Shown: positions 4,263 through 24,063 of the stretch, piece after piece
Numbering within the stretch: the stretch's first letter is position 1
Layout: each line of letters starts with the position of its first letter
Position numbers and translations under genes: made by a program
From: an uncultured archaeon
GTDB lineage: Archaea; Aenigmatarchaeota; Aenigmatarchaeia; QMZP01
Length of the DNA stretch: 64,000 nt
Direction of reading: 5' to 3'
Assembly: GCA_964498245.1 (NCBI GenBank)
Contig: CAZCGK010000009.1
Span: 1,607 to 65,606 of the forward strand
Notes under the pieces: generated by a model
Told to the model about the DNA's origin: nothing
Databases searched by the model: none
What the model saw: the letters and a program-made list of their open reading frames with translations, nothing else

Positions 4263-5375
4263 ATGGTTGTAAACATAGATCCTTGGGGAAGCGTACAGGT
4301 TGAGGATTATAACAAGCTTATAGAGGAGTTCGGTATAAAACCTTTTGAAAAATTCAGAAGTATTTTACCTGATCTTCCTGTGTTTATGAGAAGAGGTGTA
4401 GTTTTTGGTCACAGAGATTTCGAGAGAATAGCGGAATGTCTCAAAGAGGGTAAAGAATTTGCAATGATGACAGGACTAATGCCCTCAGGCAAGTTTCATT
4501 TGGGTCATAAACTGGTTGCGGAGCAGATAATCTATTATCAGAAATCGGGAGCAAAAATATTTCTCTGTGTTGCGGATATAGAAGCATACAACATGAGGAG
4601 AATGTCACTCGAAGAATTAAAAAGAATAGCCATAGAGGAATACCTTCTGAATTACATAGCCTTGGGTCTTAAACCCAAAAACTGTGATTTCTATTTTCAA
4701 AGCCAGCGATCCAAAGACGGTGAAAAATCCTCTGCATATTACAGATTGGCAGAGATCTCTGCCAGATCGGTTACTTTGAATGAAATGAAAGCCATATACG
4801 GAGATACATCTCCGGCTAAAATCGTTTCTGTTCTCATGCAGGTTTCGGATATTCTTCACCCACAGCTCCCGGAATTTGGTGGACCAAAACCGGTTATTGT
4901 TCCTGTAGGCGTAGATCAAGACCCGCACATAAGGCTCACAAGAGATATAGCTTCACGTTTGGGCTCTACATTCGATTTCATACCCCCAAGCTCAACCTAT
5001 CATAAATTCATGCCCGGTTTAAAACGTGGAAAAATGTCATCCAGCGATCCCATGTCCTATATAGCGCTTACGGATGACCCTGAAACCGTGAAATACAAAA
5101 TAATGAAGCATGCATTCTCCGGCGGAGGAAATACCATAGAAGAGCACAGAAAAAAAGGTGGAAATCCGGATGTGGACGTTGCCTATCAGATTCTGTATTT
5201 CGGTTTCGAGCCTGATGATAGAAAATTGAAAAAAATTCATGATGATTACAGGTCCGGAAAACTTCTCACCGGCGAGCTTAAGATGTATACCATAGAAAAA
5301 ATCAACAAGTTTCTCGAAAAGCATAAAGAAAAACTCGAAAAAGCAAAGGATAAGGTAGATGAGTTTTTAAACTGA
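4263..5375 (+). CDS. trpS: tryptophanyl-tRNA synthetase, archaeal type
   Basis: Shows 'GLMPSGKFHLGH' (HIGH-like) and 'KMSSSDP' (KMSKS variant). The 370-aa length is typical of archaeal TrpRS. Confidence 0.8.
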   Translation: MVVNIDPWGSVQVEDYNKLIEEFGIKPFEKFRSILPDLPVFMRRGVVFGHRDFERIAECLKEGKEFAMMTGLMPSGKFHLGHKLVAEQIIYYQKSGAKIFLCVADIEAYNMRRMSLEELKRIAIEEYLLNYIALGLKPKNCDFYFQSQRSKDGEKSSAYYRLAEISARSVTLNEMKAIYGDTSPAKIVSVLMQVSDILHPQLPEFGGPKPVIVPVGVDQDPHIRLTRDIASRLGSTFDFIPPSSTYHKFMPGLKRGKMSSSDPMSYIALTDDPETVKYKIMKHAFSGGGNTIEEHRKKGGNPDVDVAYQILYFGFEPDDRKLKKIHDDYRSGKLLTGELKMYTIEKINKFLEKHKEKLEKAKDKVDEFLN

Positions 5376-5399
5376 AAAGAAGTATAATAAATCAAGCAT

Positions 5400-5570
5400 G
5401 CGAGGGTGCCCGAGCGGCCAAATCAAAGGCCAGAGGGGCAGGACTTAAGTTTTAGAAAAAACTTAAGTGTTGATTCGCTCAAGAAGATGAGAAATCCTGT
5501 GGCTTAGAACCCTTTCGCGAGATGCGAAAGGTGGGAAGTGCCTTCCTGGGTTCGAATCCCAGCCCTCGCA
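5400..5570 (+). tRNA. tRNA-Leu (anticodon UAA inferred), 171 nt, with a roughly 44-nt intron after position 37 and a second insertion in the variable-arm region
   Basis: The acceptor 5' arm GCGAGGG pairs with the 3' arm CCCTCGC followed by discriminator A. The T-arm is CTGGG-TTCGAAT-CCCAG. The anticodon stem is CAGGA...TCCTG, with loop CTTAAG followed by an intervening sequence. The D-loop GAGCGGCCAAA resembles class II Leu. An extra hairpin, CCTTTCGC-gagat-GCGAAAGG, sits in the variable region. Confidence 0.7.
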
Positions 5571-5600
5571 TTTTTATTTTTTACGTTGCCATACCTTATT

Positions 5601-6044
5601 ATGAGTTTAATCAAATGTGAAAGCCTGAATGAATTTTTTTATGAGCAAATCGAAAAACACGGAAAGTTTCTAAGTCCAACAGCAAGATTTTATGTTTCCG
5701 AACTTCTTTCAAATCTGGGAAACCCTCAAAAGCTTATCTCCCACGCTCTGGAAGAATATACAGAAAAATCTCTTACCTTGATGCTCAAAGATGCCGTGGA
5801 GGCAGAAGATAGATTCAAAAGCTTTTATCTTCACAGAAAACTCGGTGATTTGTGTTTAGTTTTAGGAGGAATTTACAAAATACCGAATGTAAGCGATGAT
5901 CTTATTATATACCTTGGAGAGGAAGGATACAGGGGGGCATCTCTATATTATCCATGGAAAGGATTTCTTAGTGTGTATCCGGAATTATGCGAAAAATTCT
6001 CCATGACAATGGAGGCTTTGAGAAAACTTGAAATAAAAATCTAA
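5601..6044 (+). CDS. hypothetical protein (start trimmed to the internal Met, because the upstream ORF extension overlaps the tRNA)
   Basis: ORF 5538..6044; the first 21 codons overlap the tRNA 3' end, so MSLIKCESL... at 5601 is the more plausible start. Confidence 0.4.
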   Translation: MSLIKCESLNEFFYEQIEKHGKFLSPTARFYVSELLSNLGNPQKLISHALEEYTEKSLTLMLKDAVEAEDRFKSFYLHRKLGDLCLVLGGIYKIPNVSDDLIIYLGEEGYRGASLYYPWKGFLSVYPELCEKFSMTMEALRKLEIKI

Positions 6045-9245: not shown

Positions 9246-9366
9246 GGGACCGTGGTGTAGTTTGATCGGTTTCGAGTTTCAGAACCGATCCTGTATTGGT
9301 CTAGCATTCGGGCTTCGGGTCTTTGGAGAAAAAGCCCGCGACCTGGGTTCAAATCCCAGCGGTCCC
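9246..9366 (+). tRNA. tRNA-Pro (anticodon CGG inferred), 121 nt, with an unusual D-loop intron plus a short anticodon-loop intron
   Basis: Acceptor GGGACCG pairs with CGGTCCC followed by A. The T-arm is CTGGG-TTCAAAT-CCCAG. The D-region GTGTAGTT...TGGTCTAGCAT is interrupted by a roughly 32-nt hairpin (gatcggtttcgagtttcagaaccgatc). The anticodon stem CGGGC/GCCCG encloses loop TTCGGG plus a roughly 13-nt insert. Confidence 0.65.
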
Positions 9367-9367
9367 A

Positions 9368-21564: not shown

Positions 21565-24063
21565 ATGAATATTAGAAAGGTACTGGCAGGAGGTCTTGCT
21601 GCACTTACTGCCGGTGCAACTGTGGCATTCGGCGCATTTGCGCAGAGCACATCTCTTAAGGACTACGTTGTAGCCACACCTGAAGGTGTGCTTACATCCC
21701 CGATAATAGTGGTACCCAGCTACGAAGGAATAACACCTCCGGCAGGTCTTGCAAAGGATATTGTCGGAGCAGCAGACATCGCAGCAGCTGTTGCTGGCTA
21801 TGCAACACAGGAGGTTTCAGTCGGTACAGGAACAACAGTTTCCGTGAGCAACGGTGTTGACATTTCTACAGCAAACACAAAGATTTACTTGGGAGACAGC
21901 CTGACAAAGTCAGGTCTGAAAACAACCCTGACAAAGAATGATCTCCCAACACTTCTGGCATCCGGAACTGTAACAGATGACAGCGGAAACACATATCCAT
22001 ATGACCAGTACATAACACTGTCTGCAGGTACTGTAACAGCAGGAAAGAGCAATGGTGACCTTTCCGACCCTGCAATATACATAGATACAGGTTACAGCAC
22101 AACAACACCTCTTTACAAGATATCAATAGTATTTAACAAACTCCTGAACGCTTCAAGTACAGATGTGCAGGGTAACAGCATAGAGATTCTGGGACAGGCT
22201 TACTCAATAGGAGCAGGAAGCAGTGATACAAAGCTTGTTCTCTACTCCAGTGCAAACAAGCAGACAATAAGCCAGGGAGAAACCGTAACAGTCAACATTG
22301 ATGGTGTTGACCATGAAATCGGTCTGATAGGTACATCAAGCACAACCACAGCTGTTATAACAGTGGACGGTGAATCAAGGTCCGTAACAAAAGGAAACTC
22401 CTACACAATAGCAGGATTGAATGTATACATAGAGGATGTATTCTACTTCGGAGGAGGAGCAACAGCACCTCCGGGACAGGTCGTTCTCAGCGTCAGCACA
22501 GGTGCATCCAAGATAACACTTGAAAACGGCCAGCCTGTAAAGGTTGGAACACAGGATGATATTGTAGACGGAACTCTGGTATCGATAACATCAACATCAG
22601 GACAGGGTATTTCCAAGATAGAGATATCCGTAACAGCAAAGGACCAGAACGCTGATTACATACTTGAGGGAGAAGCATTTACAGACCCAGTTTTCGGAAG
22701 CTTCAAGATCGCCTTCGGCGGCATGAACATGGGAACAACTGACACAATAACAGTAGACAACTCAGGAACAACTGCAGCCTCTCTAAAGGTAACAGACTAC
22801 AGAGGAAATGAGAAGACAATCACCTGGGCTTACACATCTTCAAGCAACTTCAACCCAGCACTTAACGAAACAAGCACAAGGCAGTTCCATGTAGTCGAAG
22901 GTGAGGCGGTAAAGAAGGGTGATTATGTACTTCTTGCACCTTCACAGGGATCCGAATTCGGTCATATAATGCAGTACACATCCTCAGGCAGCCTCGGACA
23001 GAGCGGTGCATACATAGACCTGAAGGATGTATTTACCGGAACAACAACAAGAGTCTACCTCACGGAAGGTAACAACTGGGGAGGAACATTCTACATAGAC
23101 GGTCAGCAGTACTATGTGAACTCAAGTGGTAGCGGTTCCTCGGATATGGTATTCACATGGGGAACAACTGCAAGTAGAGGTAGTGCAGGAAATGAGACAA
23201 CCGTGTTCCCACTGATAAAGCTCAACGGTGGTGAGTGGTTCACATTGACAACAAAGGTAAGTCTTAGCGATGGTACATGGTATGAGCTGCCAACAGGAAC
23301 ATTCTATTACAATGCAACAACAGATGCAAACTCTATTAAGCCACTAGGAAGGGTTACATACAACATAACAAGCGGACAACTCGCACTGGCAAACCCATCT
23401 GACAACACACAGCTCCAGTATCCAGCAGTTCTCGTACTTGAAGAGAAAGCAAAGGATGCAAACAACAATGATGTGCAGGATGCAATAATTGTAACCATAG
23501 CTGACGGCAGTGGAAGTGGTGTGGATCTCACAATTCAGGCACCTCTGCTAACAGCTACAGGTGCAAGTACAGGATACACAAAGGAAAGTGACAACAGCGT
23601 GACTGTATACGCGGACAGAAGAGGAACAATGGTTGAACATGATACAGACAGCCAGGGACTTGTGACAATCACATATCCGGATGAGCAGGCAACTGCAAAT
23701 GTTGCTGTAGGTCCGGATCCACAGTTCTCTGTTGCAGGCGAGGCAGGAACAGTTGAGCAGGCAATCAAGATAACCACACCGGTTGCCAAGCTCGACAATG
23801 AAATAAACACAGCATCTCTGACAGGAGACCTCATCCTCATCGGAGGACCATGTGCTAACAAGCTGGTAGCACAGCTCGCTGAGGATGAGACCACAGGTAT
23901 TCCAGCATGCGATGCATGGGATCTCTCAAAGGGTCTCATCAAGGAAGTAACAAACGCATTTGGTTCAGGAAAGAAAGCTCTCGTCGTTGCCGGTACAACC
24001 GCTGACGACACAAGAGAGCTTGCAGCCAAGGTAATGCAGGGAGTACTGTCTTTTGAAGAATAA
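21565..24063 (+). CDS. secreted Thr/Ser-rich surface (S-layer-like) protein
   Basis: Signal peptide 'MNIRKVLAGGLAALTAGATVAFGAFAQ'. The 832-aa body has T/S/G-rich, low-charge composition, many N-x-T/S sequons, and an oligo-T terminator downstream. Confidence 0.6.
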   Translation: MNIRKVLAGGLAALTAGATVAFGAFAQSTSLKDYVVATPEGVLTSPIIVVPSYEGITPPAGLAKDIVGAADIAAAVAGYATQEVSVGTGTTVSVSNGVDISTANTKIYLGDSLTKSGLKTTLTKNDLPTLLASGTVTDDSGNTYPYDQYITLSAGTVTAGKSNGDLSDPAIYIDTGYSTTTPLYKISIVFNKLLNASSTDVQGNSIEILGQAYSIGAGSSDTKLVLYSSANKQTISQGETVTVNIDGVDHEIGLIGTSSTTTAVITVDGESRSVTKGNSYTIAGLNVYIEDVFYFGGGATAPPGQVVLSVSTGASKITLENGQPVKVGTQDDIVDGTLVSITSTSGQGISKIEISVTAKDQNADYILEGEAFTDPVFGSFKIAFGGMNMGTTDTITVDNSGTTAASLKVTDYRGNEKTITWAYTSSSNFNPALNETSTRQFHVVEGEAVKKGDYVLLAPSQGSEFGHIMQYTSSGSLGQSGAYIDLKDVFTGTTTRVYLTEGNNWGGTFYIDGQQYYVNSSGSGSSDMVFTWGTTASRGSAGNETTVFPLIKLNGGEWFTLTTKVSLSDGTWYELPTGTFYYNATTDANSIKPLGRVTYNITSGQLALANPSDNTQLQYPAVLVLEEKAKDANNNDVQDAIIVTIADGSGSGVDLTIQAPLLTATGASTGYTKESDNSVTVYADRRGTMVEHDTDSQGLVTITYPDEQATANVAVGPDPQFSVAGEAGTVEQAIKITTPVAKLDNEINTASLTGDLILIGGPCANKLVAQLAEDETTGIPACDAWDLSKGLIKEVTNAFGSGKKALVVAGTTADDTRELAAKVMQGVLSFEE

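Follow-up and report, generated by a model that had tools for sequence, protein, structure and literature searches.

Multi-intron tRNA genes with relaxed bulge-helix-bulge (BHB) splice motifs are documented in archaea, as are DPANN tRNA-splicing endonucleases with specificity loops (PMC5829648, PMC4033280, PMC8450103). In Thermoproteales (Pyrobaculum calidifontis, Thermofilum pendens; Sugahara et al. 2007/2008, via PMC4033280, PMC8450103) a tRNA gene can carry up to three short protein-spliced introns, at the canonical position 37/38 and at non-canonical positions, with strict or relaxed BHB borders, and ordinary tRNA finders miss such genes. Several DPANN lineages combine multi-intron tRNAs with loop-bearing EndA variants of broad specificity, and the incomplete tRNA sets noted in DPANN genomes point to disrupted genes that escape detection (PMC5829648). 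Here we describe such a gene in a 64,000-nt stretch of DNA (the window; positions 1,607 to 65,606 of contig CAZCGK010000009.1, assembly GCA_964498245.1) from an uncultured archaeon of the Aenigmatarchaeota (DPANN). All coordinates are positions in the window on its + strand, and L-numbers denote related loci that were fetched for comparison. The 171 nt at 5400-5570 very probably constitute a single-copy-type, syntenic tRNA-Leu(UAA) gene with four exons, three protein-spliced BHB-type introns and no encoded CCA. Archaeal tRNA genes are stated to hold at most three introns (PMC8450103, PMC4033280); multi-intron genes are thus already known, and the window gene sits at the published maximum.

The locus compares with the described systems as follows. 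The window lineage belongs to DPANN and not, as the Thermoproteales do, to Crenarchaeota, and its tRNA-Leu introns include one in the loop of the class-II variable arm and a 12-nt mini-intron of the bulge-helix-loop (BHL) type. The Thermoproteales enzyme is an (alpha-beta)2 endonuclease with a Crenarchaea-specific loop. ARMAN/Micrarchaeota and other DPANN archaea, in which EndA is of the epsilon2 or the loop-bearing alpha4 type (Fujishima 2011, PMC3239211; Kaneta 2018, PMC5829648), share with the window non-canonical and multiple introns and relaxed motifs of the BHL and hBH types. Aenigmatarchaeota lie outside the genome set of PMC5829648, and the window is likened to these archaea through its tRNA genes. 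Multiple BHB-dependent introns at non-canonical positions of one gene also occur in the nuclear tRNA genes of Cyanidioschyzon merolae (PMC3728597), but these belong to a eukaryotic nucleus, include permuted genes and have no sequence relationship to the window.

ARAGORN called a tRNA-Leu(taa) solely after all three segments had been removed from the 171-nt gene, and gave no Leu call when the D-loop insertion was kept. The spliced product of 84 nt is 80-93% identical to 25 spliced orthologs and retains all 24 pairs of the consensus cloverleaf; nine of these pairs covary, among them the product's own compensated A4-U69. In ~25 fetched Aenigmatarchaeota loci from metagenome-assembled genomes (MAGs), TrpRS is followed directly by a tRNA-Leu gene or has one at another place in the same few-kb locus. 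The intron-poor orthologs (L019, L016, L008, L020, L032, L015) have the 37/38 intron only, the metagenomic tRNA-Leu gene L085 has no intron at all, and each of the three intron sites of the window gene is occupied by introns in other members of the clade. The original prediction, made on the window alone, had described a 171-nt tRNA-Leu(UAA) with a 44-nt canonical intron and one further insertion in the variable arm. Its coordinates and sequence string proved exact and both insertions are real, but a third, the 12-nt insertion in the D-loop, had been missed, and removing two segments gives no Leu call.

The exons account for every part of the cloverleaf. Exon 1 (5400-5421), bounded by ortholog alignment, holds the acceptor 5' strand GCGAGGG, nucleotides 8-9, the D-stem strand CCC and the 5' part of the D-loop, GAGCGGCCAA. 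Exon 2 (5434-5449) continues with A21, the D-stem strand GGG, G26, the anticodon stem strand CAGGA and the loop CTTAAG, in which the anticodon TAA occupies 5446-5448. Exon 3 (5494-5507) contains A38, the 3' strand of the anticodon stem, TCCTG, and the 5' part of the variable region, TGGCTTAG, and exon 4 (5539-5570) consists of TGCCTTC, the T-arm, the acceptor 3' strand CCCTCGC and the discriminator A5570. Assembled, the acceptor strands pair as GCGAGGG/CCCTCGC, the T-arm is perfect (CTGGG-TTCGAAT-CCCAG) and the anticodon arm reads CAGGA-CTTAAG...A-TCCTG.

Intron 2, the canonical 37/38 intron (5450-5493, 44 nt), lies between G37 and A38 and was placed by a BHB scan in which each cut falls 2 nt 3' of a strand of the 4-bp central helix (H). 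It has the full hBHBh' motif: H = CTTA/TGAG is paired at 4/4 positions, and the outer and inner helices comprise 6 and 3 bp, respectively. A 37/38 intron is present in all related tRNA-Leu genes examined except the intron-less L085 and L084 (anticodon CAA), and H is 4/4 in most of them. Self-splicing introns of group I or group II were considered and rejected, as the insertions of the window gene measure just 12, 44 and 29-31 nt as against a catalytic core of hundreds of nucleotides, and have no Rfam match.

Intron 1 is a mini-intron in the D-loop, ATCAAAGGCCAG (5422-5433, 12 nt), with cuts predicted at AA^A and AG^A. Here GGCC at 5416-5419 pairs with GGCC at 5428-5431 (4/4 bp) and closes an 8-nt loop, which makes it a motif of the BHL type. 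With this segment the D-loop measures 23 nt, compared to 11-13 nt in orthologs without a D-loop intron. The same site holds introns of 17-48 nt in eight other genes, and the central helix is 4/4 in six of the nine genes. Removal of intron 1 would join GGCCAA to AGGGG, the predicted exon junction.

The segment in the variable arm had been predicted to be an extra, non-canonical insertion of ~30 nt carrying a perfect 8-bp hairpin with a GAGAT loop. The hairpin is there as described: CCTTTCGC-GAGAT-GCGAAAGG at 5511-5531 (5511-5518 pairing with 5524-5531, 8 bp, 100% complementary), which would form the inner helix (h') of the BHB motif of intron 3. By our estimate, ~0.015 perfect 8-bp inverted repeats with a 3-8-nt loop are expected by chance in 171 nt. 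Ortholog alignment had been set beforehand as the test that could refute the non-canonical insertion; intron-poor orthologs have a 15-nt variable region, TGGCTTAGTGCCTTC, without the segment, and the window adds 29-31 nt within the loop of the variable arm. The extra ~30 nt are therefore an insertion and not a long class-II arm. Further introns at this site were collected from MAG loci and from 12 additional tRNA-Leu genes found in a metagenome scan for variable-arm insertions. All 14 have H = GCTT/RRGY paired at 4/4 positions. Their bulges are AG^N and NN^T, the latter in the form AA^T in 12 cases, and splicing these introns in silico restores GGCTTAG joined to TGCC. Introns at the variable-arm site always form a hairpin and their sequences are mutually unrelated, while the flanking exons are conserved. 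For the hairpin of the window's own intron 3, no closer relative was found in which covariation could be followed; the nearest TrpRS shares just 75% identity, and on its contig (L098) no tRNA-Leu gene follows.

If the segment were instead retained in the mature tRNA, the class-II arm would have an unusual length of 46 nt and be capped by the 8-bp hairpin. The minimum-free-energy fold resembles such an extended arm, since the GGC/GCC stem stays closed with the hairpin stacked on top, and the weakness of the BHB central helix at this site fits as well. Class-II variable regions usually span ~13-21 nt, however, and 46 nt lies far outside this range. ARAGORN rejects the gene when the segment is kept, the 15-nt region of the orthologs lacks it, and the 14 insertions at the same site have unrelated sequences with the BHB geometry intact. 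We consider a retained arm extremely improbable.

How intron 3 is cut is less settled than its presence. Homology with the other genes places it at 5508-5538 (31 nt), which restores GGCTTAG joined to TGCC. The structural rule places it at 5509-5537 (29 nt), with H = CTTA (5503-5506)/TGGG (5532-5535). In this shifted register the endonuclease would read the sole contiguous 4-bp helix (C5503-G5535, U.G, U.G, A5506-U5532) and cut after 5508 and 5537, leaving a 7-nt variable loop, UUAGAGU, in place of the clade consensus UUAGU, with GGCUUAGA joined to GUGCC. The BHB scan gives 4/4 pairs for CTTA/TGGG compared to 3/4 in the homologous register, the relatives L100, L036 and L021 (also L099) use a shifted register of the CTTA or CTCA type, and the 86-nt product is likewise called tRNA-Leu(taa) by ARAGORN. 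Nevertheless, splicing yields GGCT(T/C)AGTGCC in each of the 25 relatives, and the 14 introns of the closest site use the homologous register. In addition, the loop of the variable arm belongs to the identity elements for LeuRS in archaea, so that a loop longer by 2 nt would be unusual. The shifted register is a possibility of some substance, to which we give clearly less than an even chance.

We also considered a 24-nt intron in the variable arm (5508-5531) with a mirrored BHB and discarded it; its bulges lie 5' of the helix strands, which contradicts the geometry of the enzyme, and the resulting variable loop would be 7 nt too long. In L084 and L090, two tRNA-Leu genes with anticodon CAA (loop CTCAAG), a variable-arm intron occurs with the same site and BHB as in the UAA genes, which indicates that the site is common to the isoacceptors.

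With three introns, the gene would be expressed in the following way. Transcription would start from its own TATA-like promoter and end at a T-run. The archaeal tRNA-splicing endonuclease would then cut 2 nt 3' of each 4-bp helix strand, at a strict hBHBh' motif at 37/38 and at relaxed or BHL motifs in the D-loop and variable arm; the motifs are present in the sequence and the cleavage is predicted from them. An RtcB-type ligase would join the exons, and CCA, which is not encoded in the gene, would be added post-transcriptionally. The mature product would be an 84-nt class-II tRNA with the variable arm GGC-UUAGU-GCC, or one of 86 nt with the loop UUAGAGU if the shifted register were used.

Several observations weigh against this interpretation. 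The BHB scan of the 171-nt gene lists dozens of chance-type 4-bp BHB-like combinations, and intron 1 has no inner helix. Intron 3, in the register of its relatives, pairs GCTT with GGGA with one G.A mismatch (3/4), and its outer helix comprises ~2 bp (the 5' bulge is 4 nt). Finally, six-frame translation of the 64-kb window revealed no credible motifs of the splicing endonuclease (EndA) or RtcB. The same search gave no credible motif of a CCA-adding enzyme. As BHB-like combinations are common by chance, the motif by itself is weak evidence and it is the comparison with orthologs that carries the weight.

The same comparison bears on whether the locus could be a decaying pseudogene with accumulated insertions, the functional tRNA-Leu(UAA) being encoded elsewhere in the genome. 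Such a reading would fit the 64 kb of genome in view, the lack of recognition by Rfam or default ARAGORN and the one mismatched BHB helix. On the other hand, all exon positions are intact and changes in stems are compensated (A4-U69), the syntenic position is conserved, a TATA-like box and a T-run are present, and every insertion sits precisely at an intron site of the relatives. The window moreover contains a tRNA-Pro gene of the same architecture. We therefore regard a pseudogene as very unlikely and favor a functional tRNA-Leu gene with three introns.

Multiple or non-canonical introns had also been suggested as a feature of this genome, and the tRNA-Pro gene bears this out. tRNA-Pro(CGG), the second multi-intron gene (9246-9367), yields a spliced product of 75 nt that is called tRNA-Pro(cgg) once two introns are taken out. 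One, at 9263-9296, lies in the D-loop, measures 34 nt and has H = GTAG/CTGT with an inner helix of 9 bp; the other, at 9320-9332, is a 37/38 intron of 13 nt in the anticodon loop, with a central helix of just 3/4. A scan of the 64-kb window for an intact T-arm with a matching acceptor found the Leu and Pro genes alone. Default ARAGORN and Rfam at gathering thresholds reported no tRNA or other RNA gene in the 64 kb; both tRNA genes are thus invisible to these standard tools. On 5300-5700, Rfam at E-values up to 10 gave chance-level partial T-arm matches only. ARAGORN with introns permitted found the tRNA-Pro locus alone and mis-called it Leu(cag). In a set of ten related loci, the Rfam model for tRNA matched the intron-less L085 and missed single-intron genes such as L019; on L036 it gave one borderline partial tRNA match, on the opposite strand (30.6 bits versus a cut-off of 29). 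We also scanned for tRNAs interrupted in the T-loop; the eight scattered candidates are apparently chance matches, as judged by eye with no comparison to open reading frames (ORFs), and were set aside. A MAG like that of the window would be scored as lacking tRNA-Leu and tRNA-Pro, and inferences on completeness and codon usage in DPANN would be biased. Through tRNA genes with multiple introns, small archaeal genomes in this sense conceal essential genes from annotation.

The canonical intron, correctly recognized in the original prediction, contains a conserved element that had been overlooked there. The precedent for an intron-borne guide is the 37/38 intron of pre-tRNA-Trp, which directs the modifications Cm34 and Um39 as a box C/D RNA (Clouet-d'Orval 2001; Singh 2004; PMC4033218, PMC7994747). 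Intron 2 resembles it in its position, in its kink-turn (K-turn) boxes, in an element antisense to the anticodon loop of its own tRNA, in the mutual exclusion of guide pairing and BHB, and in the predicted target, wobble nucleotide 34. In contrast to pre-tRNA-Trp, the tRNA here is tRNA-Leu(UAA), and just one K-turn (a D'/C'-like half-mer) and one candidate guide are found in an intron as short as 37-44 nt. Position 34 of tRNA-Leu(UAA)/(CAA) is also the predicted target of trans-acting C/D small RNAs (sRNAs) in Pyrococcus (PMC7994747); there the sRNAs have separate genes, whereas here the candidate guide lies within the intron of its own target.

A repeat search and the minimum-free-energy fold both identified a perfect 11-bp hairpin, ACTTAAGTTTT / AAAACTTAAGT, at 5443-5468 (5443-5453 pairing with 5458-5468, loop AGAA). 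It pairs A31-G37 and the first four nucleotides of intron 2 with an internal element complementary to the anticodon loop, and it is mutually exclusive with the BHB helix of intron 2. The K-turn-like motif follows at 5470-5490, with TTGA (D'-like box), the stem TTC/GAA, a 3-nt bulge GAT and GA (C'-like box). With the D'-like box beginning 2 nt past the guide element, U34 has as its partner the nucleotide five positions upstream of the box. The same arrangement recurs in ~35 orthologous 37/38 introns (L002-L037, L082-L096) that are otherwise unalignable: the palindrome of the anticodon loop, CTTAAG, reappears inside the intron and is followed after 2 nt by an NUGA box; a hairpin whose sequence varies, an xRU bulge of 3 nt and GA come next. 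A strict K-turn rule selected 22 of 36 orthologous introns compared to 21 of 7200 shuffled sequences (0.3%), and most of the introns that failed it are K-loop variants. The spacing is identical in 18 of the 22 selected introns and sets nucleotide 34 opposite the fifth position before the D'-like box. L090 has the anticodon CAA within the loop CTCAAG, and its internal element reads CTTGAG, a compensatory change.

These regularities suggest that the K-turn/anti-anticodon element of intron 2 plausibly guides 2'-O-methylation of nucleotide 34 before splicing. In the unspliced transcript an alternative fold would pair the anti-anticodon element with the anticodon loop beside the K-turn and so present nucleotide 34. 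We tentatively put forward, as a joint proposal that we hold at a little below even chances, that the 37/38 intron of Aenigmatarchaeota tRNA-Leu(UAA) is a minimal cis-acting half box C/D guide for Nm34 that would act before BHB refolding and splicing, in a gene family that is at the same time hyper-disrupted, with up to five protein-spliced introns. An intron-borne guide, if functional, would be a second, independent natural case of a tRNA intron programming the modification of its own anticodon, the strategy of the tRNA-Trp intron.

The CTTAAG/K-turn element could equally serve RNA structure or act as a chaperone; it might, for instance, form a fold bound by L7Ae through which the precursor attains a splicing-competent shape. 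We give this explanation an even chance. Intron 2, at 44 nt, has one K-turn and lacks the two-box-pair architecture of terminal C/D and internal C'/D' boxes; a single K-turn without a terminal C/D pair fits a structural role better than a guide. The guide pairing, 11 bp in the window, is just 7-8 bp in three relatives judged by eye (L018, L019, L027), and the spacing in four of the 22 selected introns directs to nucleotide 32 and not to 34. A motif search of the 64-kb window in all six frames yielded no credible L7Ae, Nop5 or fibrillarin, and the lack of the latter two there also fits a structural role. Rfam gave no C/D family match to 5300-5700 even at E-values up to 10. A purely structural role is, however, harder to reconcile with the constant spacing that puts nucleotide 34 opposite the fifth position, with the compensatory CTTGAG opposite the CTCAAG loop, and with the choice of position 34, for which both the Pyrococcus sRNAs and the tRNA-Trp intron offer a parallel (PMC7994747).

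The intron load of tRNA-Leu varies widely in the clade. We spliced 26 complete genes in silico and obtained tRNA-Leu(taa) every time; one gene has no insertion, six have one, seven have two, six (the window gene included) have three, five have four and one has five. The gene with five, in L022, is 372 nt long and is interrupted in the D-loop, anticodon stem, 37/38 position, variable arm and T-loop; tRNA-Leu(UAA) genes with four or five insertions are found among the loci L022 (five), L036, L011, L087, L091, L002 and L100. A literature search gave no report of four or five introns in an archaeal tRNA gene and none of tRNA introns in Aenigmarchaeota. In Aenigmatarchaeota, a single orthologous gene with five intron sites allows intron gain and loss to be traced across dozens of genomes, which should be useful for understanding how tRNA introns spread and how the specificity of the splicing endonuclease co-evolves with them.

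Many of the long insertions have a repeated element in common, ACCCTTTTACGGGAGC...GCGTTTACGGAAAA. It occurs in L002 (variable arm and T-loop), in L036, L022 and L082 (D-loop), in L022 also at 37/38, and in L030, L086 and L027. The variable-arm intron of the window opens with the same AACCCTTT as this element. It is possible that the repeated element is a module, either mobile or protein-binding, which passes from one intron site to another.

Upstream of tRNA-Leu the window encodes RadB, TyrRS and TrpRS. The TrpRS shares at most 72-75% identity with any other, and its best relatives are from Aenigmatarchaeota MAGs. A TATA-box-like sequence, TTTTTAAA (5364-5371), lies 29-36 nt ahead of the 5' end of the mature tRNA and overlaps the last codons of TrpRS, the stop codon of which is at 5373-5375. 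Orthologous loci have a similar box of the TTTTAAAT type ~25-35 nt upstream of tRNA-Leu, and we infer that TTTTTAAA acts as the promoter of the gene. The T-run TTTTTATTTTTT (5571-5582) begins directly after the discriminator base. Oligo-T terminators are known from archaea, and the run is likely the terminator of tRNA-Leu. The fold of the 171-nt stretch is better than those of all 200 shuffled sequences (0 of 200 as good; z = -4.56). A 147-aa ORF follows downstream (5601-6044, start ATG 5601) and corresponds to the public gene call at 4339-4782 of L001, the identical contig. An ORF start at 5538, already suspected to be spurious, is a GTG inside exon 4 of the tRNA.

In several relatives a 16S rRNA gene lies 1-2 kb downstream of tRNA-Leu (L019 4710-7051, L027 5328-6747, L036 6321-7104). 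In L019 the full 1478-position 16S model spans 2342 nt, which implies an insertion of ~860 nt, probably an rRNA intron. The window itself has no rRNA match. The GC content of the window is 38%, with a spike in GC and purines (GC 0.46, AT skew 0.25) at 21565-24063 over an 832-aa ORF that is rich in Thr, Ser and Gly. This ORF has a signal-like segment at its N-terminus and probably encodes a surface protein of the S-layer type.

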